64,000 nucleotides of DNA from a virus. Taxonomy: Duplodnaviria > Heunggongvirae > Uroviricota > Caudoviricetes. Shown here piece by piece: positions 3,349 through 16,204 of this stretch. The notes below the pieces were generated by a model. That model did no database searches. It saw only the letters and a list, made by a program, of their open reading frames with translations, and was not told the origin of the DNA. The DNA lies in the IMG/VR virus record IMGVR_UViG_3300028888_000003, one strand, 5' to 3'. Position 1 is the stretch's first letter, and every line of letters starts with the position of its first letter. The position numbers and the translations under genes are program-made.

Positions 3349-3390
3349 AAGGAGGGACGGGAAACCGTCCCAATTTTTCACAATACTTTT

Positions 3391-3456
3391 TAGACGTAAT
3401 ACGTCTAAAAAATTTTCAGAAAAGTATTGACAAATTAATTGATATATGTTAATATA
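3391..3456 (+). promoter_or_regulatory. palindrome + TTGACA promoter
   Basis: palindrome 3391-3407; -35 3427-3432. Confidence 0.55.
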
Positions 3457-3502
3457 TATATGCAATTAAACAAAACTATAATTTAAAAAGTGAGGTAAAA
3501 TT

Positions 3503-3790: not shown

Positions 3791-3845
3791 AATTAGGGCG
3801 AGATTTATAAAAAAATCTCGCCCGTTATTTTATAGAAAAGTTTTT

Positions 3846-3910
3846 TAGACGTAATACGTCTAAAAAACTTTATAGTTTTTGTTGACAAATTAAAAATAGT
3901 ATGATATAAT
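3846..3910 (+). promoter_or_regulatory. palindrome + TTGACA/TGATATAAT promoter
   Basis: palindrome 3846-3862. Confidence 0.6.
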
Positions 3911-3915
3911 ATAGT

Positions 3916-4040
3916 TGTCAAGGGGGGAGAGATAAGTGAGTTGCTCCTATTGGAAATCAGAAACCTTGTGCACGAGGATAAAGACAGAAACAAGCGTAGG
4001 CGACAAAATCTTCGTAAAAAAGTTGCAAATTTTTTACACT
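3916..4040 (+). ncRNA. candidate small RNA (ORF-less transcript)
   Basis: starts TTGTCAAGGGGGGAGAG, 3' end CTTTCCTCTTGACAAG pairs back and contains the -35 of the next promoter. Confidence 0.4.
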
Positions 4041-4046
4041 TTCCTC

Positions 4047-4076
4047 TTGACAAGCCTAAAAAATTATGATATAATA
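4047..4076 (+). promoter_or_regulatory. TTGACA-17-TGATATAAT promoter (no palindrome)
   Basis: consensus -35/-10. Confidence 0.55.
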
Positions 4077-4081
4077 TAGAT

Positions 4082-4165
4082 GTTGAAAGGTTCCGCTAAG
4101 CTCTTGGTGATTGTGGCGTGATTAAAGCATAGGTAGTTAAGGGGCTATCGCCTTTCAATAAAAGA
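4082..4165 (+). ncRNA. candidate small RNA
   Basis: GTTGAAAGG...CCTTTCAAT closing stem, no ORF, followed by next promoter. Confidence 0.4.
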
Positions 4166-4177
4166 CTTAAAAAACTC

Positions 4178-4206
4178 TTGACAAACTAAAAAATTTATGA
4201 TATAAT
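4178..4206 (+). promoter_or_regulatory. ACTCTTGACAA-17-TATAAT promoter
   Basis: consensus elements. Confidence 0.55.
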
Positions 4207-4232
4207 TTATATAGAAAGTGAGGGAAATCAAA

Positions 4233-4415
4233 ATGAAAATTGCAGAAACCTATAAGTTTGAAAAAATGTATGATAATCTTATTCACAAATACGGATATGA
4301 ACACCCTATTGTAATTCAGTTTGGTTCACTCGCAGAGCGATGGGACAATACAAATTGGAATAAGAAATGTATGGAAATACTCTATCGCACACTTATTGAA
4401 CAAGAAATCTCCTAA
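4233..4415 (+). CDS. hypothetical protein
   Basis: RBS AGTGAGGGAAATCAAAATG; 60 aa. Confidence 0.55.
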   Translation: MKIAETYKFEKMYDNLIHKYGYEHPIVIQFGSLAERWDNTNWNKKCMEILYRTLIEQEIS

Positions 4416-4482
4416 TTGTTTTACCTCCTTTATATATTGTGCGTTAGTCTGGGTTTTGCCCAGACTTTCGCATTGGAGTTTT

Positions 4483-4546
4483 TAGACGTAGTACGTCTAA
4501 TTTAATTTAGAAAAATTATTGACTTTTTACTTATTTATGATATAAT
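4483..4546 (+). promoter_or_regulatory. palindrome TAGACGTAGTACGTCTA + TTGACT promoter
   Basis: palindrome 4483-4499. Confidence 0.6.
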
Positions 4547-4551
4547 ATAAT

Positions 4552-4685
4552 TGTCAAGAGGAAATGACGACCATCGCAAGAAATCTTGTCCGAGTTGCAG
4601 TTAGTAACAGGTGTGTTAGCGAGCACGGAAGCCGACTAATACGGAGAGGACATTTGAAAAATTTTTAAAAACTTTTAAAAAACTC
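4552..4685 (+). ncRNA. candidate small RNA
   Basis: 5' TTGTCAAGAG is exact reverse complement of 3' CTCTTGACAA (which is the -35 of the next promoter); no ORF. Confidence 0.4.
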
Positions 4686-4714
4686 TTGACAAATTAAAAA
4701 AATTATGATATAAT
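4686..4714 (+). promoter_or_regulatory. TTGACA-17-TGATATAAT promoter
   Basis: consensus. Confidence 0.55.
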
Positions 4715-4746
4715 AATTACAGAAATTAAGAAAAGGAGATTTTAAA

Positions 4747-4941
4747 ATGAAAACTTATTATTTAAAATGGTACGATAAAAACGAAGAAAAACTAACAACT
4801 ATACTAATTAATGATAGTCAAAAAAAATTAATTGATTTTATGAGAGAGCATTTTCCAATAGATGATATGCTTTATAATGAAAGTATAAATATAACTATTG
4901 ATAGAGATGAGGAACCATTTTACAACCTTGCTGTTGATTAA
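4747..4941 (+). CDS. hypothetical protein
   Basis: RBS AAAAGGAGATTTTAAAATG; 64 aa. Confidence 0.6.
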   Translation: MKTYYLKWYDKNEEKLTTILINDSQKKLIDFMREHFPIDDMLYNESINITIDRDEEPFYNLAVD

Positions 4942-4990
4942 AAATAAAGTGTAAAGGTTAATATCTTTACACTTTTATTATATTGATTTT

Positions 4991-5056
4991 TAGACGTAAT
5001 ACGTCTAAAAATATTCAGTTTTAATACTTGACTTTTCTAAAAAAATATGATATAAT
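4991..5056 (+). promoter_or_regulatory. palindrome + TTGACT/TGATATAAT promoter
   Basis: palindrome 4991-5007. Confidence 0.6.
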
Positions 5057-5086
5057 GAATTTACAAAAAGAAAAGGAATGATAAAA

Positions 5087-5542
5087 ATGACCGAAATTGA
5101 AAAGGTTTTAGTAAAATTTGTAACTGATATTGACGAAGAACTTTCAGTAACTTTTGAAAAAGACGGATATTATTTTTTAAGTGCTGAAAACTGTATCAAT
5201 ATTGACTTAACAGATTTTGATGACTGCGGTTTTATTCGTCATCTTAAAGAATTTCACAATTGTAATTGGGCTGATAAATTTGATTTACACTTATGGTCAA
5301 TTCTTCACGAAATAGGACATTATGAAACTGAAGATTTACTTGACGAAGATACAGGCGAACAAGAAATTCGTTTTTGGTTATCACTTACTAATAAAGATAT
5401 AAGTCATAATATTAATATTCAAAATGAATATTTTAATCTCACAAGTGAGTATTATGCGACAGATTGGGCAAAAGATTGGATAATAAATCATAAAGAAGAA
5501 GCAAATAAAATTAGTAACTTAATTAAAAATGCGAGAAAATAA
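5087..5542 (+). CDS. hypothetical acidic protein
   Basis: ATG 5087 has proper spacing to AAAAGGAA; ORF-track start 5078 too close to RBS. Confidence 0.55.
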   Translation: MTEIEKVLVKFVTDIDEELSVTFEKDGYYFLSAENCINIDLTDFDDCGFIRHLKEFHNCNWADKFDLHLWSILHEIGHYETEDLLDEDTGEQEIRFWLSLTNKDISHNINIQNEYFNLTSEYYATDWAKDWIINHKEEANKISNLIKNARK

Positions 5543-5568
5543 TCTCGCATTTTGGTTTGCGAGATTTT

Positions 5569-5635
5569 TAGACGTATTACGTCTAAAATTATTATAATTT
5601 AACAATTGACTTTTATATAATTATAGTATATAATA
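5569..5635 (+). promoter_or_regulatory. palindrome + TTGACT promoter
   Basis: palindrome 5569-5585. Confidence 0.55.
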
Positions 5636-5668
5636 TGTATGTAAGAAAGAAAAGAAAGGAAGAAAAAA

Positions 5669-6058
5669 ATGATAATCAAAGCATATCGTATGTTTAGCGA
5701 CCCTTGTCTGATTTATGAAGGAACTAATTACAAAGAGGCAAAAAGAAAAGCCTTTGGACCATTAAAGCAAATAGGGCTTACAGAAAAAAATTATAAGACA
5801 CCCATAATAACTACTACTTGCAAAAGTTATCATAAAGTAATAACTTATTATCCTATCCGTAATCACACCATACAAGCAAAAGAAAATCCAAATTTTTTCT
5901 TTCACTCAATTATTTATTTTGATATTTACTTCAAGGATAAACTTGATGATTATGATATAGGATTAAGAGTCAAAAAAGGTGACCCCTTGGCATACAAATT
6001 AAGAGAAAAAAGAGATATAAAAAATGGAATAACACATTATCCTCGCAAATATTATTAA
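5669..6058 (+). CDS. hypothetical protein
   Basis: RBS GAAAGGAAGAAAAAAATG; 129 aa. Confidence 0.6.
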   Translation: MIIKAYRMFSDPCLIYEGTNYKEAKRKAFGPLKQIGLTEKNYKTPIITTTCKSYHKVITYYPIRNHTIQAKENPNFFFHSIIYFDIYFKDKLDDYDIGLRVKKGDPLAYKLREKRDIKNGITHYPRKYY

Positions 6059-6095
6059 AAGTCCGTTAAATCGGACTTTTATTTTTTATTTATTT

Positions 6096-6160
6096 TAGAC
6101 GTTATACGTCTAAAAAGTTTTCTAAAAACTATTGACAGATTGAAATTATTATGCTATAAT
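6096..6160 (+). promoter_or_regulatory. palindrome TAGACGTTATACGTCTA + TTGACA/TGCTATAAT promoter
   Basis: palindrome 6096-6112; terminator hairpin 6061-6090 just upstream. Confidence 0.6.
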
Positions 6161-6174
6161 AAAATCACAATAAA

Positions 6175-6200
6175 GGTTGCGACTTACCGCAGAGAAAGGA
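6175..6200 (+). promoter_or_regulatory. conserved 5' leader hairpin (stem TGCG/CGCA, loop ACTTACC) + purine-rich RBS
   Basis: GGTTGCGACTTACCGCAGAGAAAGG; same element at 7337, 11364, 15621 with compensatory stem changes. Confidence 0.5.
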
Positions 6201-6208
6201 AAAATATT

Positions 6209-7195
6209 ATGAAAATTACAAACACCCTTGACCTCACCAAAAAGAAAACGGGCGATTGGTCAATCAACGGAAAATTAGTTTCTGTATCTGAAGAGGAAGA
6301 CAATATTCTTATGCAGATTCACAACCGCTACCGCAATATGTATGAGAGCAACAGAGAGGCTGATTTTGCTACAATAAGTGGTATTCTTTCAACTGACCAC
6401 CCCTCTGTCGCACAGATACTCGGTATCGTGACCGAAGCTGTTGCCGAAGCCGTTGAAGCCGAAGCACCAAGAGAACTTACCGCAGAGGAAAAGAAAACGG
6501 CTACACTTGAAGCCATTAAGAAACTTATTTCTTTCTTTACAGAATTTGACTTTGAGCCGAACTACCGTTTTGTAAACACCCTTGCTCTGTCCCTTAAACA
6601 GGGTGAGAAAAAAGCAAAAGATTATATCACAAACTACTTTGAACTTACTGATAGTCCATTCAAAAAAGAAGTCGTGCAGAAAATGAAATCGGCAGAATTT
6701 AAGAGTATTCTCAATGATATTGCTCTTACAGAGCCGACCAAGACCATTAACAATCGTTTTAAACTCTACTATGGCTCACAGGGAACAGGCAAAACTACAA
6801 TCGGTATGAAAGAAACCGATAAGAGATGTATCGTATGTAACTCTTCAATGCTCCCTGCCGACCTTATGGAAGATTTTGTGTTCGTTGACGGAAAGGCAAC
6901 CTTTAAACCCTCATCACTTTGGCGGTGTATGACAGAGGGAAAGCCGATTGTCTTGGACGAAATCAATCTTCTGCCCTTTGATAGTCTGCGTTTCTTACAA
7001 GGCGTTCTTGACGGAAAGGCAAGTTTTGAATACAAGGGCAATACAGTTGAAATCAAAGAGGGTTTCAAAATTATCGGTACTATGAACCTTACTGTTAATG
7101 GTATGACTTACGGTTTGCCCGAACCTCTCGTTGATAGATGTGAGGAAACAAAGAAATTCAAACTGACCGCAAATGACCTCGTAAAAGCAATTTAA
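6209..7195 (+). CDS. MoxR-like AAA+ ATPase
   Basis: Walker A GSQGTGKT, Walker B IVLDEIN, sensor region; start at ATG after AGAGAAAGGAAAAATATT (ORF-track start 6140 is in the leader). Confidence 0.7.
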   Translation: MKITNTLDLTKKKTGDWSINGKLVSVSEEEDNILMQIHNRYRNMYESNREADFATISGILSTDHPSVAQILGIVTEAVAEAVEAEAPRELTAEEKKTATLEAIKKLISFFTEFDFEPNYRFVNTLALSLKQGEKKAKDYITNYFELTDSPFKKEVVQKMKSAEFKSILNDIALTEPTKTINNRFKLYYGSQGTGKTTIGMKETDKRCIVCNSSMLPADLMEDFVFVDGKATFKPSSLWRCMTEGKPIVLDEINLLPFDSLRFLQGVLDGKASFEYKGNTVEIKEGFKIIGTMNLTVNGMTYGLPEPLVDRCEETKKFKLTANDLVKAI

Positions 7196-7257
7196 GAAAA
7201 TTATATAACAGAAAAGAGGGGAGCAATCCCCTCCTTTCTCTTTCCCAAAAAAAGAAT

Positions 7258-7322
7258 TAGACGTCATACGTCTAAAAACTTTTCTATAAAATATTGACAA
7301 ACCACAAAACTTATGATATAAT
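7258..7322 (+). promoter_or_regulatory. palindrome TAGACGTCATACGTCTA + TTGACA/TGATATAAT promoter
   Basis: palindrome 7258-7274. Confidence 0.6.
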
Positions 7323-7336
7323 GTAGTTACAAATTA

Positions 7337-7362
7337 AGGGTTGCGACCTACCGCAGAGAAAG
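7337..7362 (+). promoter_or_regulatory. conserved leader hairpin (loop ACCTACC)
   Basis: GGTTGCGACCTACCGCAGAGAAAGGAAA. Confidence 0.5.
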
Positions 7363-7372
7363 GAAACATATT

Positions 7373-8923
7373 ATGGAAATTACAAAAGGTGAAATCAAGG
7401 AAATTCTTGATACACTCCCTATCGGTTACTATGCCGACAGACCTATTGCCGTAAACATAAGTGAAACAGAGCCAACAAGTTTTTATAACCTTGAAAAAGA
7501 CGAAATCACTTTTGCTTATAGCAACATTGAACAAGCACTCGCAAATGTAGAAGATTTTAACAGAGAAACGGCTATAAGAAGTGTTCTCTATCACGAATTA
7601 AGTCACGCAATTCTCACTCCTCAAAATCTCATACTCACCTCTAAAACGGCAGATATGGTCAATATTTTTGAAGATGAAAGAATTGAAACCTTGCTCAAAG
7701 ACTTTTATCACGATACTGACTTTAAAGGTTTAGTAAAAGCCCTTAATGGTGATTTTACTCCGCAAGATAGTATGGATGCTTTTTTTCAAGTAGTTAGACA
7801 GAGAAAAGGCAAGCCCAAATTTCTTAAAAAAGTAAATGAAATCATTTACAAATATGCTATGCTTGGTCATAATTGTGACGGACACGGCTGTTGGCAAGAT
7901 GGCAGATGGACAATCAATCAGTATGTAGAGGATATTGAAACCCTCTATGACGAAATAGCAAAGGACTTTAATGCTAATCCGCAAGACTATAAAAATCCTC
8001 TCTCAATATCTAATAGTGGCAATGAGAATAGCGATTTTCTTGATGAAAAATCGTGGATAAAAAATGCTATGGAATGCGGTTATTCAAAAGAAGAAGCCGA
8101 AAAACTCTTTGAAGAACTCAAAAAGCATATTGACGGAAATGAAAACGACAACGACAATGAGTATTGCGAAGCCAAAGAGGGCGAAGGCGATACCGAGTGC
8201 AATGGTGAGCAAGACAAAGACCACAATGGTTTTGGTAAACTAATTATTAAAAAAGGTTTTGGCGGTGAAACCATTTCAAACTTGACCGATAAACTTTCCG
8301 CAATTATCTCAATATTTAATAAGAAAAATGCAAGCGGTAGTGCTTTCACAAGTTATAGTGGTGTTATCAATCCTAAATTGTGCGGTAATAATGACTATCG
8401 TTTCTTTGAGAGAAAAGCCGAAGCAAGAGGAAACAATCGTTTTGGTAGTTTGCACCTTACACTTTGGATAGATACAAGCGGTAGTTTTTATACCAATAAA
8501 AACAAAACAAATGCTCTCATAAAATCACTTGAACTCATTGAAAAGAAAAACCCCAATTTTTCCCTTGACGTTGTTCATTGTTCTTGCGGTCAAAGGTTAA
8601 TGCCTAAAAACAATAGGTTTATCGACCCCGATGGTGGCAACCGCCTTACAAACGAGGTTTTTGACCTTTACAGACAGTTACAGAAAGGCAACACATACAA
8701 TTATAATATATTCCTCTTTGACGGCGAGGCTATGCCTGACAGGAATAATGACACAAATACTGCCTTTAACAAAGTTGATTTTAATAACTGTCTATTCATT
8801 TCCGATTATGATAACGAGAGATATTTGAAAACTCTCAAATCGGCACAAGTTATTCTCACAAGCAATTATGTAAATGAACTTTATGATAATGTGTTTACCG
8901 CATTACACAAAGCATTTAGATAA
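7373..8923 (+). CDS. VWA-domain protein with N-terminal HExxH metallopeptidase-like motif
   Basis: LYHELSHAIL (HExxH); MIDAS-like WIDTSGSF; 516 aa; genomic partner of the MoxR-like ATPase. Confidence 0.65.
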   Translation: MEITKGEIKEILDTLPIGYYADRPIAVNISETEPTSFYNLEKDEITFAYSNIEQALANVEDFNRETAIRSVLYHELSHAILTPQNLILTSKTADMVNIFEDERIETLLKDFYHDTDFKGLVKALNGDFTPQDSMDAFFQVVRQRKGKPKFLKKVNEIIYKYAMLGHNCDGHGCWQDGRWTINQYVEDIETLYDEIAKDFNANPQDYKNPLSISNSGNENSDFLDEKSWIKNAMECGYSKEEAEKLFEELKKHIDGNENDNDNEYCEAKEGEGDTECNGEQDKDHNGFGKLIIKKGFGGETISNLTDKLSAIISIFNKKNASGSAFTSYSGVINPKLCGNNDYRFFERKAEARGNNRFGSLHLTLWIDTSGSFYTNKNKTNALIKSLELIEKKNPNFSLDVVHCSCGQRLMPKNNRFIDPDGGNRLTNEVFDLYRQLQKGNTYNYNIFLFDGEAMPDRNNDTNTAFNKVDFNNCLFISDYDNERYLKTLKSAQVILTSNYVNELYDNVFTALHKAFR

Positions 8924-8975
8924 CAGAGAAAAGTGTAAAGGGGAAACCCTTTACACTCTTTTTCTATTACAAATT

Positions 8976-9041
8976 TAGACGTAATACGTCTAAAAAATAC
9001 CATAAAAGTATCTTGACAAATACTTTATAATGTGTTATACT
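8976..9041 (+). promoter_or_regulatory. palindrome + TTGACA promoter
   Basis: palindrome 8976-8992. Confidence 0.55.
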
Positions 9042-9084
9042 AATCTTGTAATCAAGGAGATAATAAAAGAAAGGAAAGAATTAA

Positions 9085-9558
9085 ATGAAACTGTTAATAA
9101 TCTTTATTGTCTTAAATGTGGTCAATGTTATAATGCAGACCGTCAAATCAATAGCAACTCTTAAATGTGGTAAGGTAGTAGCAAGTCTTATCAATGCTAT
9201 AACCTACGGACTTTATACTGTTGTAATTGTATATATGGTTTGCGAATTACCTTTATGGCTGAAAGCCCTCATAATCGGCTTAGCCAATCTTTTCGGTGTT
9301 TACTTTGTTAAATTATTTGAAGAAAAAGTAAGAAAAGATAAACTTTGGAAAGTTGAATGTAATATCAATTCCGAAAATTTCACACAATTTTATGATACAA
9401 TTCGAGGAATAGGCATTCCGTTTAATTTTAATCCGACAAACAATGGTTATATTACTGTAAATCTTTTCTGCGAAACACAAAAAGAAAGTCACACAATAAA
9501 AGAAATCTTAAATAAATTTGATATTAAGTATTTTGTTACTGAAACAAAAACTCTTTGA
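9085..9558 (+). CDS. membrane protein (3 predicted TM helices) with soluble C-terminal domain
   Basis: hydrophobic N-terminal 90 aa; RBS AAAGGAAAG. Confidence 0.55.
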   Translation: MKLLIIFIVLNVVNVIMQTVKSIATLKCGKVVASLINAITYGLYTVVIVYMVCELPLWLKALIIGLANLFGVYFVKLFEEKVRKDKLWKVECNINSENFTQFYDTIRGIGIPFNFNPTNNGYITVNLFCETQKESHTIKEILNKFDIKYFVTETKTL

Positions 9559-9605
9559 TTACACAAGAAAGGTCGGGCAACCGACTTTTTCTTGTTATAG
9601 AATTT

Positions 9606-9680
9606 TAGACGTATTACGTCTAAAAATATTTAAAATAAATAGAAAAAAGTATTGACTTTAAAAATATTATATGATATAAT
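9606..9680 (+). promoter_or_regulatory. palindrome + TTGACT/TGATATAAT promoter
   Basis: palindrome 9606-9622. Confidence 0.6.
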
Positions 9681-9717
9681 AAAGATGTTCCAAAGGGGCA
9701 GAAAGGAAGGAAAAAAT

Positions 9718-10053
9718 ATGAAACTTGCAAGTGCAAACAAAATTCGGGAAACCGAAATCCGCAAAATTTTTGAGTTCTACGGCGGTGCTGAGAATGATTG
9801 CGGTATGATTGCCTCAAACTCGTTTAATATTCCTATTGTTGCAGAGAACGGAGAAGAAGGTTGGCTTGAAGTTGTCGCAAAAGTAACTAAAGATAACGGT
9901 GATGACGGCTACCTTAAAAGACAGGCTTATGAAATCAATCTTGCGGACAAGGCAAAAAGGAAAGCCGAAGTCGAAAAAAAGAAAGCTAAAAAAATAGCCG
10001 CCGATGAAAAGCGGAGAGCAGAGCTCAAAGCAAAAGCAGAGCCGACCGCATAA
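9718..10053 (+). CDS. hypothetical protein with K/A/E-rich tail; paralog of 14803..15147
   Basis: shared IxSNSFNxPIVAxNGEEGW block; RBS AGAAAGGAAGGAAAAAATATG. Confidence 0.65.
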   Translation: MKLASANKIRETEIRKIFEFYGGAENDCGMIASNSFNIPIVAENGEEGWLEVVAKVTKDNGDDGYLKRQAYEINLADKAKRKAEVEKKKAKKIAADEKRRAELKAKAEPTA

Positions 10054-10097
10054 GACAAAGAGTGGAGGAAACTCCACTCCATCTTTATCCATAATTT

Positions 10098-10174
10098 TAG
10101 ACGTAGTACGTCTAAAAACCATTAAAAAAATTTTTTTAAAAGGTATTGACAAATAAATAATACTATGATATAAT
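10098..10174 (+). promoter_or_regulatory. palindrome TAGACGTAGTACGTCTA + TTGACA/TGATATAAT promoter
   Basis: palindrome 10098-10114; leader hairpin CTTGTCAAGTAGGGAG...CTCCCTA...GACAAG follows. Confidence 0.6.
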
Positions 10175-10239
10175 TATCTTGTCAAGTAGGGAGAGCGATG
10201 GCAAACTCCCTATAATATAAGACAAGAAAGGAAAATCGT

Positions 10240-11109
10240 ATGAATTACGAAAAAAAGGTTGACCGCAGAAAAAAGTATTATTTAATACTTGATTGCGAAA
10301 CCGCAACACTCCCTTGTGCCGAAAGTTATGGTGCAGAGGAAAAGAAAATAATAGCAATAGCAAAACCCCTTATCTATGATTTAGGTTGGCAGATTATTGA
10401 CCGCAAAGGAAAAGTGTATAGCAGAAAATCTTATTTGATTTCTGAAATATTTTCCGTTCCCTCAATTTTCAATACCGCCTATTACGCAAGCAAAAGACCT
10501 ATCTATCTTGACCGCCTTGCAAAAAACGAAACAGTATTGACCGATTGGAAAACGGCTACGGCAGACCTCGTTACCGATATGGAAAAGGTCGAAAGCATAG
10601 GTGCTTATAATTCTATGTTTGATTTCAAAAAAGCAATACCCTTTACAGAGTTGTATATCAACAAACTGTATTCGCAAGACTATTATGAGTGGGAAAAAAT
10701 GCAAACCGCAATTTGTGAGCATATTGCAAAAGGCAATTACTCCACAAAAAGCAGTAAAAACTTTGAACACGATTTGTTCCGTTTTCGTGGCAAGGAATAC
10801 CCTCTCTTTGATATATGGGGATTGAGTTGTCAGCACATACTTAATAATGACAAGTATAAGCAGACTTGTCTTGACAATTCGTGGCGGACCGCAAGTGGTA
10901 AGTATTTCAAAACCTCTGCTGAAACTTGTTATCGCTTTTTCAAAGGCAACAATGAATTTGAAGAAAGCCACACCGCCATTGACGATAGCACGATTGAAAG
11001 TGAACTGTTCACCGAAATTCTCAAAAGAACAAATAACAATTTTGCTATGGGCATAACTTATTTTCCGTTCCGTATTCTCGGCAAGGTTGAGGAATTTTCC
11101 TCGCCTTGA
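10240..11109 (+). CDS. DnaQ-like 3'-5' exonuclease (DEDDh)
   Basis: Exo I LILDCETA, Exo II YNSMFDF, Exo III HTAIDDS. Confidence 0.7.
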   Translation: MNYEKKVDRRKKYYLILDCETATLPCAESYGAEEKKIIAIAKPLIYDLGWQIIDRKGKVYSRKSYLISEIFSVPSIFNTAYYASKRPIYLDRLAKNETVLTDWKTATADLVTDMEKVESIGAYNSMFDFKKAIPFTELYINKLYSQDYYEWEKMQTAICEHIAKGNYSTKSSKNFEHDLFRFRGKEYPLFDIWGLSCQHILNNDKYKQTCLDNSWRTASGKYFKTSAETCYRFFKGNNEFEESHTAIDDSTIESELFTEILKRTNNNFAMGITYFPFRILGKVEEFSSP

Positions 11110-11161
11110 CCGAAAGGGTGTAAAGGAGAAATCCTTTACACCCATTTTCCTATTATAAATT

Positions 11162-11227
11162 TAGACGTAATACGTCTAAAAAATATTCAAAAAAAGTATT
11201 GACTTTTTAGTCACAATCGTTTATAAT
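11162..11227 (+). promoter_or_regulatory. palindrome + TTGACT promoter
   Basis: palindrome 11162-11178. Confidence 0.55.
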
Positions 11228-11285
11228 AAGGGTGTAATCAAGAGAGAGCAAAAAAACAAAAAATAAAAAAAGTTGAGAAAACCCC

Positions 11286-11314
11286 TTGACAAATTAAAAA
11301 TTGTATGCTATAAT
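11286..11314 (+). promoter_or_regulatory. CCCCTTGACAA-17-TGCTATAAT promoter
   Basis: consensus. Confidence 0.55.
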
Positions 11315-11363
11315 ATAAATGTAATCAAGAGGAACGCAAACCTCTTGTTGCAATAAAAAATAG

Positions 11364-11384
11364 GGTGGTGACCGACACCATAGC
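11364..11384 (+). promoter_or_regulatory. leader hairpin variant (TGGTG ACCGA CACCA)
   Basis: loop ACCGAC resembles ACCTAC elements; followed by AGAAAGGAAAG RBS. Confidence 0.4.
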
Positions 11385-11407
11385 CAAAAGGCAGAAAGGA
11401 AAGCACT

Positions 11408-11800
11408 ATGACAAGAAAAGACTACAATCTCGGAGTAATCGCAATCCTCAACGGCAACGAGGTAGCAGAGGACACTCGCAACGAAATCCTTGCCTATGCT
11501 GAAAGCGATAATCAGAAAATCGCAGACCGCAACGCAAAGAGAGCCTCCACTCCCTCAAAGGCACAGAAAGAAAATGAGCCTCTTTACCCTGCTATCCTTG
11601 CTACCCTCAACGCAGATACTCCCACTCTCTCTACCGCAGTTGCTACTACCACAGGTCTGAAAACGCAGAAAGTTACAGGTCTGCTTGGTAATCTTCTGAA
11701 AGAAGGCAAAGTAACAAAGGTATCTGTGCCTGTCAAGGGCAAGGGTAAACAGACAGGTTGGTTGCTTGTTATGAATGATACTGACTCCCTTGTAGACTAA
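11408..11800 (+). CDS. hypothetical protein; paralog of 15654..15995
   Basis: shared NAKRA../P(L/I)Y(P/D)A(I/L)(L/A)A.L motif and C-terminal VKGKG region. Confidence 0.6.
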   Translation: MTRKDYNLGVIAILNGNEVAEDTRNEILAYAESDNQKIADRNAKRASTPSKAQKENEPLYPAILATLNADTPTLSTAVATTTGLKTQKVTGLLGNLLKEGKVTKVSVPVKGKGKQTGWLLVMNDTDSLVD

Positions 11801-11881
11801 CAGATTTTTATCGGTAAGACTACTAAAGTAACCTTTGGGTGTAAAGGGGAAACCCTTTACACCTTTTACTTAAAATAAATT

Positions 11882-11946
11882 TAGACGTAATACGTCTAAA
11901 AACTTTTATATAAACTATTGACAAATTAAAAACTGTATGCTATAAT
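11882..11946 (+). promoter_or_regulatory. palindrome + TTGACA/TGCTATAAT promoter
   Basis: palindrome 11882-11898. Confidence 0.6.
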
Positions 11947-11966
11947 GTATACAAGAGGTGAAGAAA

Positions 11967-12101
11967 ATGACAAAGAAACGAATGAAAGCCGAAAACAATA
12001 AAAAAAGAAGTTCTTGGTTTGGTGTCAATCCGCAAATGAAAGTTATTCCTAATAAGAAAAAAGAAAACGAAAAAAGAAAATGCAGAAGAAAGGAGTTTTA
12101 A
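11967..12101 (+). CDS. small basic peptide (44 aa)
   Basis: RBS AGAGGTGAAGAAAATG; K/R-rich. Confidence 0.4.
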   Translation: MTKKRMKAENNKKRSSWFGVNPQMKVIPNKKKENEKRKCRRKEF

Positions 12102-12103
12102 TT

Positions 12104-12289
12104 ATGTATTCAATACACTTTATTTATGATGATATTTATGACATAATAAATTTTGCGAATTTTCACGAAATGATGGATTTCGTTGTTGATTTGGCAAAGG
12201 TTGATACTAAATGTCAGTTTATTATCCGTAATGAAATAGGTGAAACAATTTATAAGTATATCAATCTTGAAAAAAGAGAGGAGTATTAA
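12104..12289 (+). CDS. hypothetical protein
   Basis: RBS GAAAGGAGTTTTAATTATG; ORF-track start 12080 overlaps upstream peptide. Confidence 0.55.
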   Translation: MYSIHFIYDDIYDIINFANFHEMMDFVVDLAKVDTKCQFIIRNEIGETIYKYINLEKREEY

Positions 12290-12290
12290 A

Positions 12291-12479
12291 ATGACAGTAA
12301 AAGATTTAATTAAAGTTCTTGAAACCTACCCACAAGAAGCAACTGTTTTTTATGAAGAGGTTAGTAATGAACTTGAAAAAACAGACATTTATGTAGAAAC
12401 CATTGAAGAAATATTAAAAACTATACCTATGGAACTTATTGATAGGAACTGTCGCAACGGCATAGTCATTTTTCCTTAA
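12291..12479 (+). CDS. hypothetical acidic protein
   Basis: RBS AGAGAGGAGTATTAAAATG. Confidence 0.55.
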   Translation: MTVKDLIKVLETYPQEATVFYEEVSNELEKTDIYVETIEEILKTIPMELIDRNCRNGIVIFP

Positions 12480-12512
12480 AATTAAAAGTCCAATAAAATG
12501 GACTTTTACCCC

Positions 12513-12541
12513 TTGACAAATCAAAAATTCTATGGTATAAT
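12513..12541 (+). promoter_or_regulatory. CCCCTTGACAA-17-TGGTATAAT promoter
   Basis: consensus; preceded by terminator hairpin 12482-12510. Confidence 0.55.
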
Positions 12542-12596
12542 AATTACAGAAATTAAGAAATATTGTATACATACCAGAATGAAAGGATGAATATAA

Positions 12597-12971
12597 ATGA
12601 CAGTAGAAACAAAATATATTGCATATGATAGTAAAGTATTTGATGACGATGATAAATGTGCAGAATATGAATGGCATAATATTGTAGTTCCAGATTTATT
12701 TAACAAATATATTGAAATGTATTTTAGAGAAGAATCTAAAAGAGATTTATCTAATTATACTATTGCTGACTTCTATGATGATTTGATTAATTGTGAATAT
12801 ATGGTAATAAAAGAAAATATACCAGATGATAGTATTATTTTAGATTATGTAGTGTCAAGATATGGCATTCGGATACCAGTAAAAAGAGGTAAATATAGAT
12901 ATGATATTTATTCTGCTAATGGTTGGGAGAAATATGAATATGTTGAACCTGTTAAGTGTATATTTAACTAA
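12597..12971 (+). CDS. hypothetical protein
   Basis: 124 aa, RBS GAAAGGATG. Confidence 0.55.
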   Translation: MTVETKYIAYDSKVFDDDDKCAEYEWHNIVVPDLFNKYIEMYFREESKRDLSNYTIADFYDDLINCEYMVIKENIPDDSIILDYVVSRYGIRIPVKRGKYRYDIYSANGWEKYEYVEPVKCIFN

Positions 12972-13040
12972 TGGAGGTGATACTAAATGAATATGCCGAT
13001 TTTTATGAAATTATCGAGGTATTAGAAAGGAAAAAACAAA

Positions 13041-13286
13041 ATGAAAACTATTTTTATTATCTATTGTGTTACAGTAATTATCTCATTACTTAACGAGTGT
13101 ATCGGATTTTTTGCAGTTAGAGAAATGGCAAAAAAGGGTACAGAATTTAAGAGAAGTAAAATGCCGAAAACTATCGCAACATTCAGGTTATTTTTTGTTG
13201 CATTAATCCCCATTTTTAATGTTATAATTACTCTTTTAGTCTTAATCTGCTTTAACAAAGTAATAAACTCTTTTATTGAAAATTAA
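13041..13286 (+). CDS. small membrane protein (2 TM)
   Basis: hydrophobic helices; RBS AGAAAGGAAAAAACAAAATG. Confidence 0.55.
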   Translation: MKTIFIIYCVTVIISLLNECIGFFAVREMAKKGTEFKRSKMPKTIATFRLFFVALIPIFNVIITLLVLICFNKVINSFIEN

Positions 13287-13324
13287 AAGTCCGTTTTAAC
13301 GGGCTTTTATTTTACTATAGTTTT

Positions 13325-13391
13325 AGACGTATTACGTCTAAATTTATTTAAAATAAATACTTGACTTTTTATTAAAATTGATATATAATAT
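13325..13391 (+). promoter_or_regulatory. palindrome + TTGACT/TATATAAT promoter
   Basis: palindrome 13325-13341. Confidence 0.6.
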
Positions 13392-13396
13392 AGATG

Positions 13397-13535
13397 TTGA
13401 AAGGAGAAAATTACCACGGATTCGGTGTGATGACTTTCAACTACCATATCAGACGGAAGGCTTTAAATCCCACCAAAAACCAGCGTGGGTGGTAAGGAAA
13501 TCAAGAGGTAGTAAAATTGAAAAATTTTGAAAAAA
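13397..13535 (+). ncRNA. candidate small RNA
   Basis: GTTGAAAGG...CTTTCAAC stem; CCCACCAAAAACCAGCGTGGGTGG hairpin; no ORF. Confidence 0.4.
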
Positions 13536-13539
13536 AGTA

Positions 13540-13568
13540 TTGACAATCCTTTCGTGGTATGGTATAAT
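13540..13568 (+). promoter_or_regulatory. TTGACA-17-TGGTATAAT promoter
   Basis: consensus. Confidence 0.55.
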
Positions 13569-13573
13569 ATAAG

Positions 13574-13705
13574 TGTCAAGAGAGGTCGGCAGAGTGCGAC
13601 TTTGCTCCCATAGAGGATAGAGTTCTCACAAAGATAAGTCTGCATAACATCGAGTAAGAGGAACTAAAGGACAGTTGAAAATTTTGCAGAGATTTTCAAA
13701 ACTCT
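13574..13705 (+). ncRNA. candidate small RNA
   Basis: 5' GTCAAGAGAG complementary to 3' CTCTCTTGAC (next -35); no ORF. Confidence 0.4.
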
Positions 13706-13706
13706 C

Positions 13707-13735
13707 TTGACATTTATAAAACAATATGATATAAT
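13707..13735 (+). promoter_or_regulatory. TTGACA-17-TGATATAAT promoter
   Basis: consensus. Confidence 0.55.
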
Positions 13736-13767
13736 AATTACAGAAATTAAGAAAAGGAGATTTTAAA

Positions 13768-13977
13768 ATGAAAGTTCATGTATTTAGAAAAAACATTGTA
13801 ACATTTTCAGAAATTGAATCTGGAGAAATTTTTGAATTTGAAGACAATTTTTATATGAAAATAGAAACAAAAGGGTCGAGATATAATGCAGTCAGCATAT
13901 ACACAGGAAGCATTTGTATGTTTGATGATGATGAAGAAGTCACAAGAGTTAAATCAGCACTTAATATTGAAATGTAA
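13768..13977 (+). CDS. hypothetical protein
   Basis: 69 aa; RBS AAAAGGAGATTTTAAAATG (same leader as 4747 gene). Confidence 0.6.
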   Translation: MKVHVFRKNIVTFSEIESGEIFEFEDNFYMKIETKGSRYNAVSIYTGSICMFDDDEEVTRVKSALNIEM

Positions 13978-13995
13978 ATTTTAGGGAGGAATTAA

Positions 13996-14166
13996 AATGC
14001 TTGAATATTTATGGGTAGTTATTTGTGATGAACAAATTATTTTTGTATCGCCAAATATTAAAGATTGCATTCAATATCAAAATGCCTTCTATGAAAATAC
14101 AGGAGAAGATACAGAAATAGAACAATTTTTCTACAAGAAAAAACTTCAATGGTATCTTGAAGATTA
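13996..14166 (+). CDS. hypothetical protein (56 aa)
   Basis: RBS GGGAGGAATTAAAATG; below ORF-track cutoff. Confidence 0.45.
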
Positions 14167-14200
14167 AAAGTCCGATAAATCGGACTTTTTATTTTATATA
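14163..14200. terminator. bidirectional intrinsic terminator
   Basis: AAAAGTCCGATAAATCGGACTTTTTTATTTT (A-run/hairpin/T-run). Confidence 0.6.
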
Positions 14201-14205
14201 TTTTT

Positions 14206-14222
14206 TAGACGTCATACGTCTA
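14206..14222. promoter_or_regulatory. palindrome TAGACGTCATACGTCTA without downstream + promoter; extra half-site 14256-14268
   Basis: sits inside the transcript of the minus-strand promoter at 14288-14316. Confidence 0.5.
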
Positions 14223-14287
14223 ATTCCAAAAAGTCAAATTTTCTCACCAAATTTTTAGACGTCACCAGAAAAAGGTATCCCTTCCCC

Positions 14288-14316
14288 ATTATACCATATT
14301 CAAACAAAAAAGTCAA
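14288..14316 (-). promoter_or_regulatory. minus-strand TTGACT-17-TATAAT promoter
   Basis: rc: CTTGACTTTTTTGTTTGAATATGGTATAATGGGG. Confidence 0.5.
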
Positions 14317-14339
14317 GAGAAAAATTATAAATAAATTGT

Positions 14340-14400
14340 GAACTTTATTACATTACCATACTACCATATTACCACACTATCATATCACCGCATACCACTA
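14340..14400. repeat. seven tandem degenerate 8-mers (CCAYAYTA), iteron-like
   Basis: ccatacta ccatatta ccacacta tcatatca ccgcatac cactacac cacttcac. Confidence 0.6.
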
Positions 14401-14527
14401 CACCACTTCACGCAGGCGACACCACTGTATAGGAAGCTGCGACCTAAGGGAGCTGCGAGCTATGACCCAAGGCGGCTGCAAATTTTAAGACTACGAGCTG
14501 CGCCGCCACGCCCTTACGAATACGGGG

Positions 14528-14552
14528 CTGCGCTGCACTAAAATTTGACAAG
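14528..14552. promoter_or_regulatory. 25-bp perfect palindrome AAAATTTGACAAGCTGTCAAATTTT
   Basis: two inverted TTGACA motifs; operator-like. Confidence 0.5.
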
Positions 14553-14572
14553 CTGTCAAATTTTAAGAAGCT

Positions 14573-14608
14573 GCATATATATACATATATATATATATAT
14601 ATATCCCC
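14573..14608. repeat. (TA)n / AT-only tract
   Basis: atatatacatatatatatatatatatat. Confidence 0.7.
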
Positions 14609-14612
14609 TTTT

Positions 14613-14641
14613 ATTATACCATAAATTTATTTAAAAATCAA
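14613..14641 (-). promoter_or_regulatory. minus-strand class-B promoter (TTGATTTTTAAATAAATTTATGGTATAAT)
   Basis: rc match to late promoter consensus. Confidence 0.5.
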
Positions 14642-14723
14642 ATTTTCGGCGCACACAACTTTTCATATACAAAATTACTAAATAAATTTCTAAAAAAGAA
14701 TTAAAATTTGGTTATTTTACGAA

Positions 14724-14753
14724 TTGATTTTTTTCAAAATTTGTGATATAATA
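14724..14753 (+). promoter_or_regulatory. class-B promoter TTGATTTTTTTCAAAATTTGTGATATAATATAT
   Basis: same consensus as minus-strand late promoters. Confidence 0.6.
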
Positions 14754-14802
14754 TATTTAGAAAATAAAAAAGAAAGAAAATTTGAAAGGGGAATTTTTCT
14801 AT

Positions 14803-15147
14803 ATGGATAACAAAACTAAAGCCAAGATACGCGCAGAGATGGTAGCGAAGCTCTTTGAAATGTGGAAGGCAGAGAACGACGACATCGGCATGATCACCTC
14901 GAACTCTTTTAACTTCCCCATAGTAGCACCCAACGGTGAAGAGGGCTGGGCTAAAATCACTCTCACCATCACCAACGATGAAGATGACATGGGTTACATG
15001 GAGCGCGAGCAGTACGCTGATAAAGTAAAAGAGGCAGCTGCGCGCAAAGCAAAGGCAGAAGCTGATAAAGCAGCCAAGATCAAGCGCGACGAAGAGCGTC
15101 GGGCGCAGAAGCTCGCCAAAGCAAATAAACCGGCAACCGAAAATTGA
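14803..15147 (+). CDS. hypothetical protein with K/A/E-rich tail; paralog of 9718..10053
   Basis: ATG 14803 after GAAAGGGGAATTTTTCTAT; ITSNSFNFPIVAPNGEEGW block. Confidence 0.65.
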   Translation: MDNKTKAKIRAEMVAKLFEMWKAENDDIGMITSNSFNFPIVAPNGEEGWAKITLTITNDEDDMGYMEREQYADKVKEAAARKAKAEADKAAKIKRDEERRAQKLAKANKPATEN

Positions 15148-15172
15148 TTTTTTTATAAATTTATAGTATAAT
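15144..15172 (+). promoter_or_regulatory. class-B promoter
   Basis: TTGATTTTTTTATAAATTTATAGTATAATATATATAG. Confidence 0.6.
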
Positions 15173-15180
15173 ATATATAG

Positions 15181-15325
15181 AAGGTGAGAGAAAAATCCTT
15201 CCTCAAATTGTAAGTATTCGCGCAGTTAGGTGTTGCTTAGAAAGCAATTTGAGAGTGGGCTTAGGGAGCTGGTTCTCCACTATAAATAACTGAACCGCCA
15301 CCTTTTCTTAAAAGTAAGAAATAAA
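15181..15325 (+). ncRNA. candidate class-B-driven non-coding RNA
   Basis: starts AAGGTGAGAGAAAAATCC like other class-B leaders but no ORF; ends before next promoter. Confidence 0.4.
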
Positions 15326-15327
15326 AA

Positions 15328-15357
15328 TTTGAAAAAGTTTTAAATTTCTGATATAAT
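15328..15357 (+). promoter_or_regulatory. class-B promoter
   Basis: TTGAAAAAGTTTTAAATTTCTGATATAATATATATAG. Confidence 0.6.
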
Positions 15358-15365
15358 ATATATAG

Positions 15366-15528
15366 AAAGTGAGAGAGAAATCTAAAACTTTCAAGGTCGC
15401 GCGGAGCGGCCTCCCGAGAAAGCCGGGTAGTTATAGGCTATTCGCCCGCCGTGGTTCCCTGCACTCCGCCCTTCCTTTCCATATATATTATAACAAGCCG
15501 GTTCTTATCAAAGAAATAAGAAAAGAAA
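15366..15528 (+). ncRNA. candidate structured non-coding RNA (GC-rich core)
   Basis: GCGGAG...CTCCGC and CCCG-AGAAAGC-CGGG stems; ORF-track 15369-15605 starts with GTG and has no RBS. Confidence 0.4.
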
Positions 15529-15530
15529 AA

Positions 15531-15560
15531 TTGATTTTTTCTAAAAAGTTTGTTATAATA
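15531..15560 (+). promoter_or_regulatory. class-B promoter
   Basis: TTGATTTTTTCTAAAAAGTTTGTTATAATATATATAG. Confidence 0.6.
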
Positions 15561-15620
15561 TATATAGAAAGTGAGAGAGAAATAAAAAGTAACTCGCACT
15601 TCTAAAAATAAAAAACTTTT

Positions 15621-15645
15621 GGGTCGTGACCTACCACGAGAAAGA
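15621..15645 (+). promoter_or_regulatory. conserved leader hairpin (stem TCGTG/CACGA, loop ACCTAC)
   Basis: compensatory changes relative to 6175 and 7337 copies. Confidence 0.5.
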
Positions 15646-15653
15646 GGAATATT

Positions 15654-15995
15654 ATGACTAACAGAGAATTCTACACCGCAGTTATCAACGCAAACGTAAA
15701 CGCTGAGCTTACCGAGTTCGCGCAGACCGCAATTGAGAAGCTCGACACTGCCAACGCTAAGAAAGCAGAGAAGCTCGCTGCTAAGAGAGCCGAAGAGCAG
15801 CCTATCTATGACGCTCTTGCCGCTGTTCTGACCGAAGAGCCGCAGACCGCTTCTGATCTCGCCGCTCAGGTTCCCGAGATTACTTCTGTTCAGAAAGCAA
15901 GCTCAATGCTTCGCAAGCTTGTTGATCTCGGCGTCGCAGTTTCTACTGACCTTAAGGTAAAGGGTAGAACTGCAAAGGGTTATGCGAAAGCGTAA
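15654..15995 (+). CDS. hypothetical protein; paralog of 11408..11800
   Basis: 113 aa; RBS AGAAAGAGGAATATTATG. Confidence 0.6.
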   Translation: MTNREFYTAVINANVNAELTEFAQTAIEKLDTANAKKAEKLAAKRAEEQPIYDALAAVLTEEPQTASDLAAQVPEITSVQKASSMLRKLVDLGVAVSTDLKVKGRTAKGYAKA

Positions 15996-16045
15996 TCCCT
16001 TCCCTACGGGTTAGCCTTTTTCAACGGAATCACATAAATAGACGA

Positions 16046-16080
16046 GAGAGTACAGCTTCGCTGTACTCTTTTGTCTTATG
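16046..16080. terminator. bidirectional terminator
   Basis: AGAGAGTACAGCTTCGCTGTACTCTTTTGTCTT. Confidence 0.6.
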
Positions 16081-16083
16081 TTG

Positions 16084-16204
16084 TTCTGCGCGACCGTCAT
16101 CTCGAGCGTTCATAAGCGTCACTCTTGTACGTACATAGGCGAGGTCGCCGCACAACTACAAATTTTAAACCCCTATATTTATATTTATATTTCCCCTTTA
16201 ATTA
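16084..16204 (-). ncRNA. candidate minus-strand non-coding RNA
   Basis: from minus class-B promoter 16210-16238 to terminator at 16046-16080; contains GGTCGCGCAGAA motif. Confidence 0.35.

Follow-up and report, generated by a model that had tools for sequence, protein, structure and literature searches.

Why should an AAA ATPase gene, a VWA-domain gene and two small winged helix-turn-helix (wHTH) genes of one phage carry the same small hairpin in front of their ribosome binding sites? The question is raised by a 64,000-nucleotide stretch of Caudoviricetes DNA (IMG/VR record IMGVR_UViG_3300028888_000003; "the window" below is this whole stretch). An earlier inspection of the window, the original prediction, had noticed a covarying leader hairpin ahead of four early genes and had suggested either a translational operator for an RNA-binding repressor or an endoribonuclease processing site. 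The analysis reported here indicates that a single small cis-regulatory RNA element probably recurs at all four sites, each time in the 5′ leader of an early mRNA, and it reads that element, tentatively, as a translational operator.

Four copies of one hairpin in the window

The element follows the pattern GG(G)-U-[4-5 bp stem]-(A)CC..-loop-[stem′] and has exactly four copies in the 64-kb window, all on the + strand (Table 1). The four sequences that had been placed at 6175, 7337, 15621 and 11364 are all present, with offsets of 1-2 nt (the GGG of copy 2 begins at 7338). The shared loop that had been proposed, ACCTAC(C), holds exactly for copies 2 and 3 but not for copy 1, which has ACTTAC, or copy 4, which has the variant ACCGA. 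A purine-rich Shine-Dalgarno sequence (SD) does follow each copy, as had been noted: the gap between stem and SD is 0-1 nt in copies 1-3, and in copy 4 a second mini-hairpin (HP2) intervenes before the SD.

Searched for with a flanking stem of at least 4 bp, the motif AC[CT]TAC has three occurrences on the + strand of the window and none on the − strand, against an expectation of about 0.24 on both strands together in first-order Markov random sequence. A covariance model trained on eight hairpins and run over the whole window with filters off returned only the four sites, at 37.4, 37.2, 32.1 and 19.4 bits, with the next best match at 11 bits. Chance or simple duplication is ruled out by these window statistics together with compensatory conservation of the stem among proteins down to ~35-40% identity.

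Conservation and covariation in related phages

The comparison set comprised ~70 related metagenomic and viral loci (~0.5 Mb, both strands searched; cited below by L numbers), gathered via the AAA protein, the small wHTH proteins and contig look-ups with exact proteins. Across this set the leader typical of wHTH family genes is the one with this hairpin, which is seen in phages whose proteins are only 35-50% identical. It occurs in 34 of 67 distinct family leaders, in 16 stem combinations and 14 loop variants, and phages with two to four paralogs (L038, L035, L063, L066) have one copy per paralog, with stems that all differ. All clearly significant covariance-model matches are oriented with transcription, and the genes behind them belong to the wHTH family, except for AAA and VWA in the window, L003 and L069 only. 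One marginal match (L004:17161, E 5.4) is not ahead of a family gene. An exact scan of viral contigs with a degenerate hairpin-plus-SD pattern gave no match, the pattern being too specific.

The claim of a conserved RNA structure with compensatory stem changes was put to a covariation test on 28 distinct homologous leader sequences, with a positive result. MAFFT misplaced loop-length differences, and a structural alignment fitted by the covariance model was used instead; the hairpins can also be read directly in the unaligned raw sequences. In this alignment 98.6% of cells are paired, and four of the five pairs show two-sided changes (26 cells). The covariation score is 0.604 against 0.255 in shuffled alignments, a value attained by none of 500 shuffles, and pairing falls to 26-30% when the partner is slid by one column (26-55% over the slid controls as a whole). 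Many of the sequences are related by descent, so that these cell counts exceed the number of independent events; we count no fewer than 10 different stem states and ~6-7 G·U changes that arose independently. Non-Watson-Crick cells consist of 11 G·U and two A·C (L032, L055), without transversion mismatches. Because the outermost pair always has U on its 5′ side (U-A 19, U·G 9), GGGU forms an invariant block. The loop is 5-7 nt long, with C always at position 2 and C at position 3 except in the ACUUAC variant, and an A/U-rich single-stranded tract always lies 5′ of the element. On this comparative evidence the element is very probably a selected RNA structure.

The individual copies differ in how far they can be followed. 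Copy 1 is identical in L003, where the AAA protein is 83% identical, and L066 also has its ACUUAC loop. No change separates the window from L003 over the 46 nt between the −10 box and the SD, whereas the promoter spacer differs at 10 of 17 positions, and this identity suggests purifying selection on the copy-1 leader. Copy 2 is likewise identical in L003; L069, with a VWA protein 69% identical, has the same stem and the loop ACCUAUC. Orthologs of copy 3 have the loop ACCAAC (L035/36/37/L065) or the form UGGCG-ACCAA-CGCUA (L038/L063/L064), and those of copy 4, with HP2 kept, read UGAUG-ACCAA-CAUCA in L069 and UGGCG-ACCAA-CGCCA in L035. The HP2 stems of other phages (GUGC/GCAC, GCAC/GUGC, GCGC/GCGC) covary independently and always abut AGAAAGG.

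The hairpin had also been said to link the AAA-VWA pair with the two winged-helix paralogs, and this is borne out, the AAA and VWA copies being a lineage-specific addition. A third family paralog, found in L038, has a leader homologous in sequence to theirs (aatcacaaYaaaGG(G)UUGCGACYUACCGCARGAAAGG). Given this homology and the restriction to one lineage, the best explanation for the AAA and VWA copies is that a promoter-leader cassette was transferred onto these genes in the lineage of the window, L003 and L069.

Other leaders of the family show further variation. The same 113-aa protein, P0003, occurs with two different hairpin-SD modules (L063:9964 and L064:1091 vs L065:1011), while its coding sequence and the 5′ portion of its leader hardly change, so that hairpin and SD are exchanged, or evolve, as a unit. 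In L016 (1426-1447) a second ACC-loop hairpin, GGAC-GGUG-ACCAA-CACC-GC-UCC, lies ~40 nt upstream of the regular element and has no GGGU block and no adjoining SD. A sister type, class C, consists of GGCG-CCAC-CGCC, a 4-6 nt linker, GUGG and then AGAAAGAGG. Its loop-to-downstream pairing covaries (CCAC:GUGG, CCCAC:GUGGG, CUCAC:GUGAG), which suggests an H-type pseudoknot directly 5′ of the SD.

Position in the leader and a possible translational operator

From the 3′ end of the hairpin to the ATG the distance is 14-18 nt, with the SD 0-3 nt away; with HP2 it is 27-32 nt, HP2 abutting the SD. In leaders with a detected upstream promoter, the −10 box lies anywhere from 14 to 86 nt before the element. 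Because the spacing to the ATG is fixed and that to the −10 box varies, the element is anchored to translation and not to transcription. It spans roughly −15 to −37 relative to the start codon, a region that lies within the mRNA track of the 30S subunit in initiation complexes. A translational operator would be expected in this place, within the 30S binding region and adjacent to the SD. Outside the window, L003 and L069, moreover, the significant matches are all at family genes, an association, and only that, of the kind that autogenous control would leave.

The most likely mechanism would join these features as follows. The layout would be an A/U-rich stretch, the invariant GG(G)U, a helix of 4-5 bp that is free in sequence, a loop of 5-7 nt (usually with ACC) and the SD. 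A factor would bind the folded hairpin via the conserved GGG and ACC nucleotides and the shape of the helix and, since the hairpin sits in the 30S track and touches the SD, would block initiation while bound. The strict association with one protein family, with one copy per paralog, points to autogenous control by the wHTH protein, which would be the most economical candidate for the binder and would give each paralog its own feedback. AAA and VWA would be co-repressed, having been added to the regulon in the window lineage via the cassette transfer. Structural neighbours of the wHTH protein are generic winged helices of the PadR/MarR/ArsR type, mostly DNA-binding regulators, and beside these DNA binders they include winged helices that bind RNA hairpins or Z-form nucleic acid (SelB, Zalpha).

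Known protein-recognised translational operators include those of MS2/PP7 coat protein, T4 gp43, ThrRS and S15. A gene-specific leader that covaries, in which the stem is free and only a few unpaired nucleotides are invariant, is the classical signature of such an operator. Position and gene specificity favour an operator over the processing site that had been suggested beside it. We infer action of the RNA on translation, binding by a protein and the identity of that protein, and these deserve separate grades. For binding of the hairpin by a protein that controls translation we would give an even chance; that this binder is the wHTH protein is possible but, on balance, doubtful. The overall reading, a translational operator most economically bound by the wHTH protein, falls slightly short of an even chance. 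The version in which the wHTH family is an RNA-binding translational repressor of its own GGGU-stem-ACC hairpin, and the MoxR-type AAA and VWA genes were captured by cassette transfer, would be marginally more doubtful than the identity of the binder.

Alternative explanations

Symmetric changes in a DNA operator would mimic RNA covariation, and the element could be an inverted repeat (5 bp arms, 5-7 bp spacer, 10-12 bp centre to centre) through which a wHTH dimer regulates its own transcription. The neighbouring protein is a generic PadR/MarR/ArsR-type winged helix with a long helix suited to dimerisation, the arm spacing matches one helical turn, and the element lies ahead of the protein's own gene. 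The arms, however, do not follow the protein. Identical P0003 stands behind UGGCG-ACCAA-CGCUA in two contigs and behind UCGUG-ACCAAC-CACGA in a third, with different arms and spacings; the recognition helix ITSVQKASSMLRKLV goes with TCGTG or TGGCG arms, and SKATGLLGNL with TGGCG, TGATG or TTGCG arms. Variable arms beside a conserved asymmetric centre, ACC, and a conserved flank, GGG, are the opposite of what a dimer operator would show, and the asymmetries are mostly G·U (G·T in DNA terms; 11 vs two A·C). The orientation is constant relative to transcription; the distance is 14 to 86 nt from the −10 box but fixed to the SD; and in the leaders of the copy-4 type (class B) HP2 adjoins the element and covaries independently. 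A dimeric HTH operator was rejected on the half-sites (two arm sets for P0003, each helix with different arms, ACC conserved), and we consider a DNA operator of any such kind very unlikely. An antitermination site resembling nut/boxB, read by an N-like protein encoded just downstream, would share the hairpin size class (5 bp stem, 5-7 nt loop), the early leader and the small basic protein gene that comes next. Yet the loops are ACCNA(N) and not GNRA-like, the upstream flanks are merely A/U-rich with no conserved boxA-like element, and the protein is a folded wHTH whose N-terminus (MTNREFY..) is no arginine-rich peptide. With a promoter for each early gene a need for read-through is not obvious, and the element is fixed relative to the SD; such a site seems to us highly implausible. 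An intrinsic terminator or attenuator was rejected as well, no copy being followed by a U run and all by a purine-rich SD (GAAAGAGG or AGAAAGG) instead. Two smaller ideas were dropped: pairing of the start region AUGACN with the 5′ GGU, where the third codon position varies, and GGGUGGUGA as an SD look-alike, which is true of one stem variant only.

Two further explanations place the function in the RNA itself. In one, which involves no dedicated repressor, the element is a cis-acting processing or stability module, with a host endonuclease such as RNase Y cutting the A/U-rich tract 5′ of the hairpin to leave a more stable, hairpin-capped mRNA, or else a structural insulator by which the SD of a long, structured leader stays accessible. 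In Staphylococcus aureus and Bacillus subtilis, secondary structure downstream of the cut guides RNase Y. An A/U-rich single-stranded tract always precedes the element, which starts with G's, and fold searches found no RNA-binding signature in the neighbouring protein. The predicted 5′ tail before the hairpin, estimated from the −10 box, is only ~7-9 nt in copies 1 and 2 and 40-80 nt in most others; copies 3 and 4 lie 50-65 nt into leaders that open with another hairpin, from which processing could separate them. A Bacillus-type stabiliser, a hairpin at or near the mRNA 5′ end that protects against 5′ exonuclease, could apply to the instances with long tails once they had been processed. A general device should spread with the shuffled cassettes, however, and the element is instead found at one gene family plus AAA and VWA in one lineage. 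A purely structural cap leaves the invariant loop CC/ACC and the 5′ GGG unexplained, and a stabiliser needs no tight SD spacing. We regard this explanation as unlikely, though it deserves some weight. The other is a mini-pseudoknot switch, in which the loop CC(U) pairs either with (A)GG of the SD 4-7 nt downstream, sequestering it, or with the 5′ GG(G), freeing it, the balance being set by a ligand, temperature or a protein; it would resemble SD-sequestering H-type pseudoknots such as the preQ1-I riboswitch. The 5′ GG and the loop CC are both invariant, the sole CC-to-CU variant (copy 1, L003, L066) remains compatible with G·U pairing, and the class C leaders of the same gene family show covarying loop-to-downstream pairing with a 4-6 nt linker right before the SD. 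Against this, the candidate second helix has only 2-3 bp and no covariation, both partners being invariant; pairing of the loop with the adjacent 5′ GG is sterically strained, there being no linker to cross the stem; the class B SD is 15 nt farther off; 5-nt loops are too small for a ligand pocket; and no Rfam riboswitch model matches even at E ≤ 10. The switch is distinctly improbable in our judgement. A preQ1-I riboswitch proper was rejected, with no match to RF00522 or other Rfam models and loops of 5-7 nt where 11-13 nt are required. More generally, Rfam 15 at gathering thresholds found only tRNAs in the whole window, and at E ≤ 10 it gave no match overlapping any of the four hairpin sites in 6000-16100.

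Several observations weigh against a translational operator read by the wHTH protein. The window hairpins are modestly stable (−4.9 to −7.1 kcal/mol) with unremarkable z-scores against shuffles; such thermodynamic z-scores are uninformative at so short a hairpin size, and the support for the window hairpins is comparative, not energetic. The minimum-energy fold of the copy-3 leader is an alternative structure and not the element. AAA and VWA orthologs at ~53% identity (L002/L004, L008) have other leaders with no hairpin. Hairpin-less leaders of orthologs, which the original prediction had singled out as contrary evidence, thus exist for these two genes at that distance, the hairpin being kept at 83% and 69% identity. 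About half of the wHTH family genes are without the element, and in one close relative (L063:7028) a generic leader takes its place, so that the element is dispensable for the gene. Pairing has its flaws in one U·U mismatch at a later locus (L066:10001) and the A·C cells of L032 and L055. The invariant GG and CC could reflect RNA-RNA pairing, as in a pseudoknot, and not protein contacts. The wHTH fold is overwhelmingly a DNA-binding fold, and the fold searches, which found no RNA-binding signature in the family protein, do not discriminate RNA binding from DNA binding.

Relation to known systems

Early mRNAs of phage T4 carry operators of comparable size: the gene 43 operator and the targets of RegA and gp32 have a hairpin of ~5 bp, closed by a loop of several nucleotides, that overlaps the SD or lies directly 5′ of it. 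The T4 repressors control their own mRNA, and RegA several other early mRNAs too. The autogenous control and the co-regulation of AAA and VWA proposed for the window would run parallel to these systems, which differ in having no sequence or protein homology and in their repressors, none of them a winged helix (a polymerase, a single-stranded DNA-binding protein and the unique RegA fold). T4 translational control has been reviewed (PMC3014915). The host here is in addition probably a Gram-positive-type gut bacterium, and binding is only proposed.

The operators of MS2, PP7 and Qbeta are similar in another way: a short hairpin is read via a few loop, flank or bulge nucleotides, the stem being free if paired, and translation of the adjacent gene is repressed. 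They include the start codon of the replicase gene together with a bulged purine, and their ligand is a dimer of coat protein, whereas the element described here lies upstream of the SD, has no bulge and has a wHTH protein as its candidate binder. For the binder itself, the winged-helix domains of SelB, which bind the SECIS mRNA hairpin, and Zalpha domains are among the closest known systems. The preQ1-I riboswitch and the S15 operator pseudoknot share the 5 bp hairpin, A-rich linker and SD, and the loop C's could pair with the G's of the SD; the sister class C leaders carry a covarying loop-to-downstream pairing. They differ in that no Rfam model matches the element, the loop is too short for a preQ1 pocket and the second helix is putative. 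Lambda nut boxB, read by N, likewise puts a 5 bp stem with a pentaloop into early leaders, ahead of the gene for a small regulatory protein, and lambda N also represses its own translation via nutL. Here, in contrast, the loop is not GNRA-like, no boxA-like element or arginine-rich motif is seen, and the tie is to the SD and not to terminators.

No description of the element or of the wHTH family was found in the literature. The leader hairpin operator is a well-known kind of control; the motif itself is new, and the binder possibly unusual. If the operator reading is true, it would add a compact and widespread RNA control element (the family has ~3,900 clusters at 50% identity, and about half of the sampled leaders carry the hairpin) and a new pairing of a protein with an RNA operator, and it would open a first way into the function of the abundant phage protein family phrog_19455. 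A winged-helix protein acting on mRNA would be a rare case and a new use of the wHTH in the timing of phage early genes, and the AAA and VWA copies would illustrate the rewiring of early-gene regulons in phages, brought about by the movement of promoter-leader cassettes from gene to gene. A hairpin of ~20 nt with a free stem and few fixed nucleotides would also make an attractive portable part for translational control, as the MS2 and PP7 hairpins do. Even with another binder, the motif is a well-supported new structured RNA, fit for RNA family collections.

Genes behind the hairpins

As had been proposed, an AAA_5-type ATPase adjoins a protein with a MIDAS-bearing VWA domain. The latter domain is C-terminal and has a complete MIDAS signature (invariant DxSGS...T...D); the protein model has a predicted local distance difference test (pLDDT) score of 80, and Foldseek matches are integrin I-domains, VWA domains and the MIDAS domains of Rea1/MDN1. 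The N-terminal helical domain of the same protein has an invariant HExxH (H74, E75, H78), and the protein may be a metallopeptidase-VWA fusion that partners the AAA ATPase. A protein search found no close relative of it among cultured phages.

The genes at 11408 and 15654 had been called winged-helix-like paralogs. Their products are indeed weak paralogs (28% identity, E 8e-6), with the winged helix confidently predicted (pLDDT 90), and both are members of one large uncharacterised phage wHTH family. It corresponds to phrog_19455, which has no assigned function; Pfam wHTH models match only below threshold, and a search of NCBIfam gave no match. In gut and rumen metagenomes the family numbers 3,941 representatives of 50% clusters at E ≤ 1e-3; at the protein level it had no carrier among the cultured phages of the collection searched, and the window had no DNA relative among the cultured phages there. 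Because family members lie on contigs binned with Faecalibacillus and Ruminococcus and the promoters are of Firmicute type, a gut bacterium of the Bacillota is the probable host. The window also encodes eight tRNA genes on the − strand, in a cluster at 21170-22629 (Gln, Trp, Gly, Asn, Phe, Glu, Met) and at 48450-48526 (Leu), as well as RNA ligase, PhoH and HNH genes. Together with the 139 kb of the source contig, these would fit a large phage of virulent type.

Table 1. Positions of the hairpins, ribosome binding sites, promoters and genes discussed in the text. Positions are those of the window, except for the class C leaders. ORF, open reading frame; HMM, hidden Markov model.
Feature	Position	Strand	Sequence or parts	Context or evidence
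Copy 1	6175..6192	+	GG 6175-6176, stem 6177-6181/6188-6192, loop 6182-6187; GG + U-UGCG / loop ACUUAC (ACTTAC in DNA) / CGCA-G, outer pair U·G	upstream of AAA gene
Copy 2	7338..7356	+	GGG from 7338, stem 7341-7345/7352-7356; GGG + UUGCG / loop ACCUAC / CGCAG	upstream of VWA gene
Copy 3	15621..15639	+	GGG 15621-15623, stem 15624-15628/15635-15639; GGG + UCGUG / loop ACCUAC / CACGA	upstream of wHTH paralog B
Copy 4 (class B)	11363..11380	+	GGG 11363-11365, stem 11366-11370/11376-11380; GGG + UGGUG / loop ACCGA (5 nt, variant loop) / CACCA	upstream of wHTH paralog A
HP2, second mini-hairpin	11383..11392	+	GCC-aaaa-GGC	between copy 4 and SD of wHTH paralog A
SD of AAA gene	6193..6199	+	AGAAAGG	abuts copy 1 directly
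SD of VWA gene	7357..7363	+	AGAAAGG	downstream of copy 2
SD of wHTH paralog A	11393..11399	+	AGAAAGG	downstream of HP2
SD of wHTH paralog B	15640..15647	+	GAAAGAGG	downstream of copy 3
Class C leaders	L023:1463, L045, L040:9950, L068:880, L042:14680, L054:1460			upstream of family genes
AAA-gene promoter, sigmaA-type	6132..6160	+	TTGACA-N17-TATAAT with TG extension	
VWA-gene promoter, sigmaA-type	7294..7322	+		promoter scan
wHTH paralog A promoter, sigmaA-type	11286..11314	+		promoter scan
wHTH paralog B likely promoter	15531..15559	+	TTGATT-N17-TATAAT with TG extension	read from sequence
AAA_5 ATPase gene (MoxR/CobS/midasin type)	6209..7195	+	328 aa	AAA_5 E 1.9e-8
HExxH + VWA/MIDAS protein gene	7373..8923	+	516 aa	motif reading, structure model, Foldseek
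wHTH paralog A	11408..11800	+	130 aa	family HMM E 2e-32
wHTH paralog B	15654..15995	+	113 aa; N-terminal helix, 42-residue long helix, winged helix	model
Promoter-driven non-ORF stretches	approx. 2274-2370, 3911-4045, 4076-4175, 4547-4685, 13390-13538, 13569-13705, 15358-15500			

Promoters and leader context

The + strand of the window between 1412 and 15357 holds ~27 near-consensus sigmaA-type promoters (TTGACA/TTGACT-N17-TGnTATAAT) with A/T-rich upstream regions; 15 of the promoters in this region match perfectly, where 0.14 would be expected. A separate promoter stands before nearly every early gene, which makes for short, mostly monocistronic units, and all four hairpins lie inside the transcribed leaders of such units. 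The likely promoter of wHTH paralog B is not among the scan matches, the scan having tolerated at most one mismatch in total. The leader of wHTH paralog A opens with a separate 5′ hairpin, CAAGAGG..CCUCUUG. We infer the early timing of the four genes solely from their promoter type; a second type, with the −35 box TTGAAA, is found on the − strand at 24-51 kb.

Several strong promoters stand before stretches of 90-150 nt that have no convincing ORF and contain long-range stems (Table 1). The one at 2274-2370, for instance, has the stem GUAAGAGAACGAGG...CCUCGCUCUUAC followed by a U-run. None of these stretches matches Rfam at gathering score, and they are candidate phage small RNAs.

A palindrome, AGACGTnnnACGTCT, occurs 20 times at 1387-14221 of the window (e.g. 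6097-6111, 7259-7273 and 11163-11177), with T-runs on its 5′ side and A-runs on its 3′ side. For ten of the copies, exactly 20-21 bp separate the palindrome from the −35 box of the promoter downstream of it, and no U-tract follows the palindrome, so that it is not a canonical terminator. Relatives have other palindromes at the equivalent place: GTGGACGGnnnCCGTCCAC in L003, TTAGATGTnnnACATCTAA in L002, AGGACGTnnnACGTCCT in L069 and TAGACGAAnTTCGTCTA in L020-22. The palindromes have the appearance of a co-evolving DNA operator, through which a dimeric regulator would act on all the early promoters; the wHTH family is one candidate for that regulator.

Leaders other than those with the hairpin are reused too. 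One near-identical leader cassette, ATAGACACAATAAAGAAGGAGG, stands before unrelated early genes at 1441-1465, 1828-1852 and 2666-2690, and another, AATTACAGAAATTAAGAAAAGGAG, at 4715-4745, 12542-12570 and 13736-13766; this reuse shows promoter-leader modules to be shuffled within and between these genomes.

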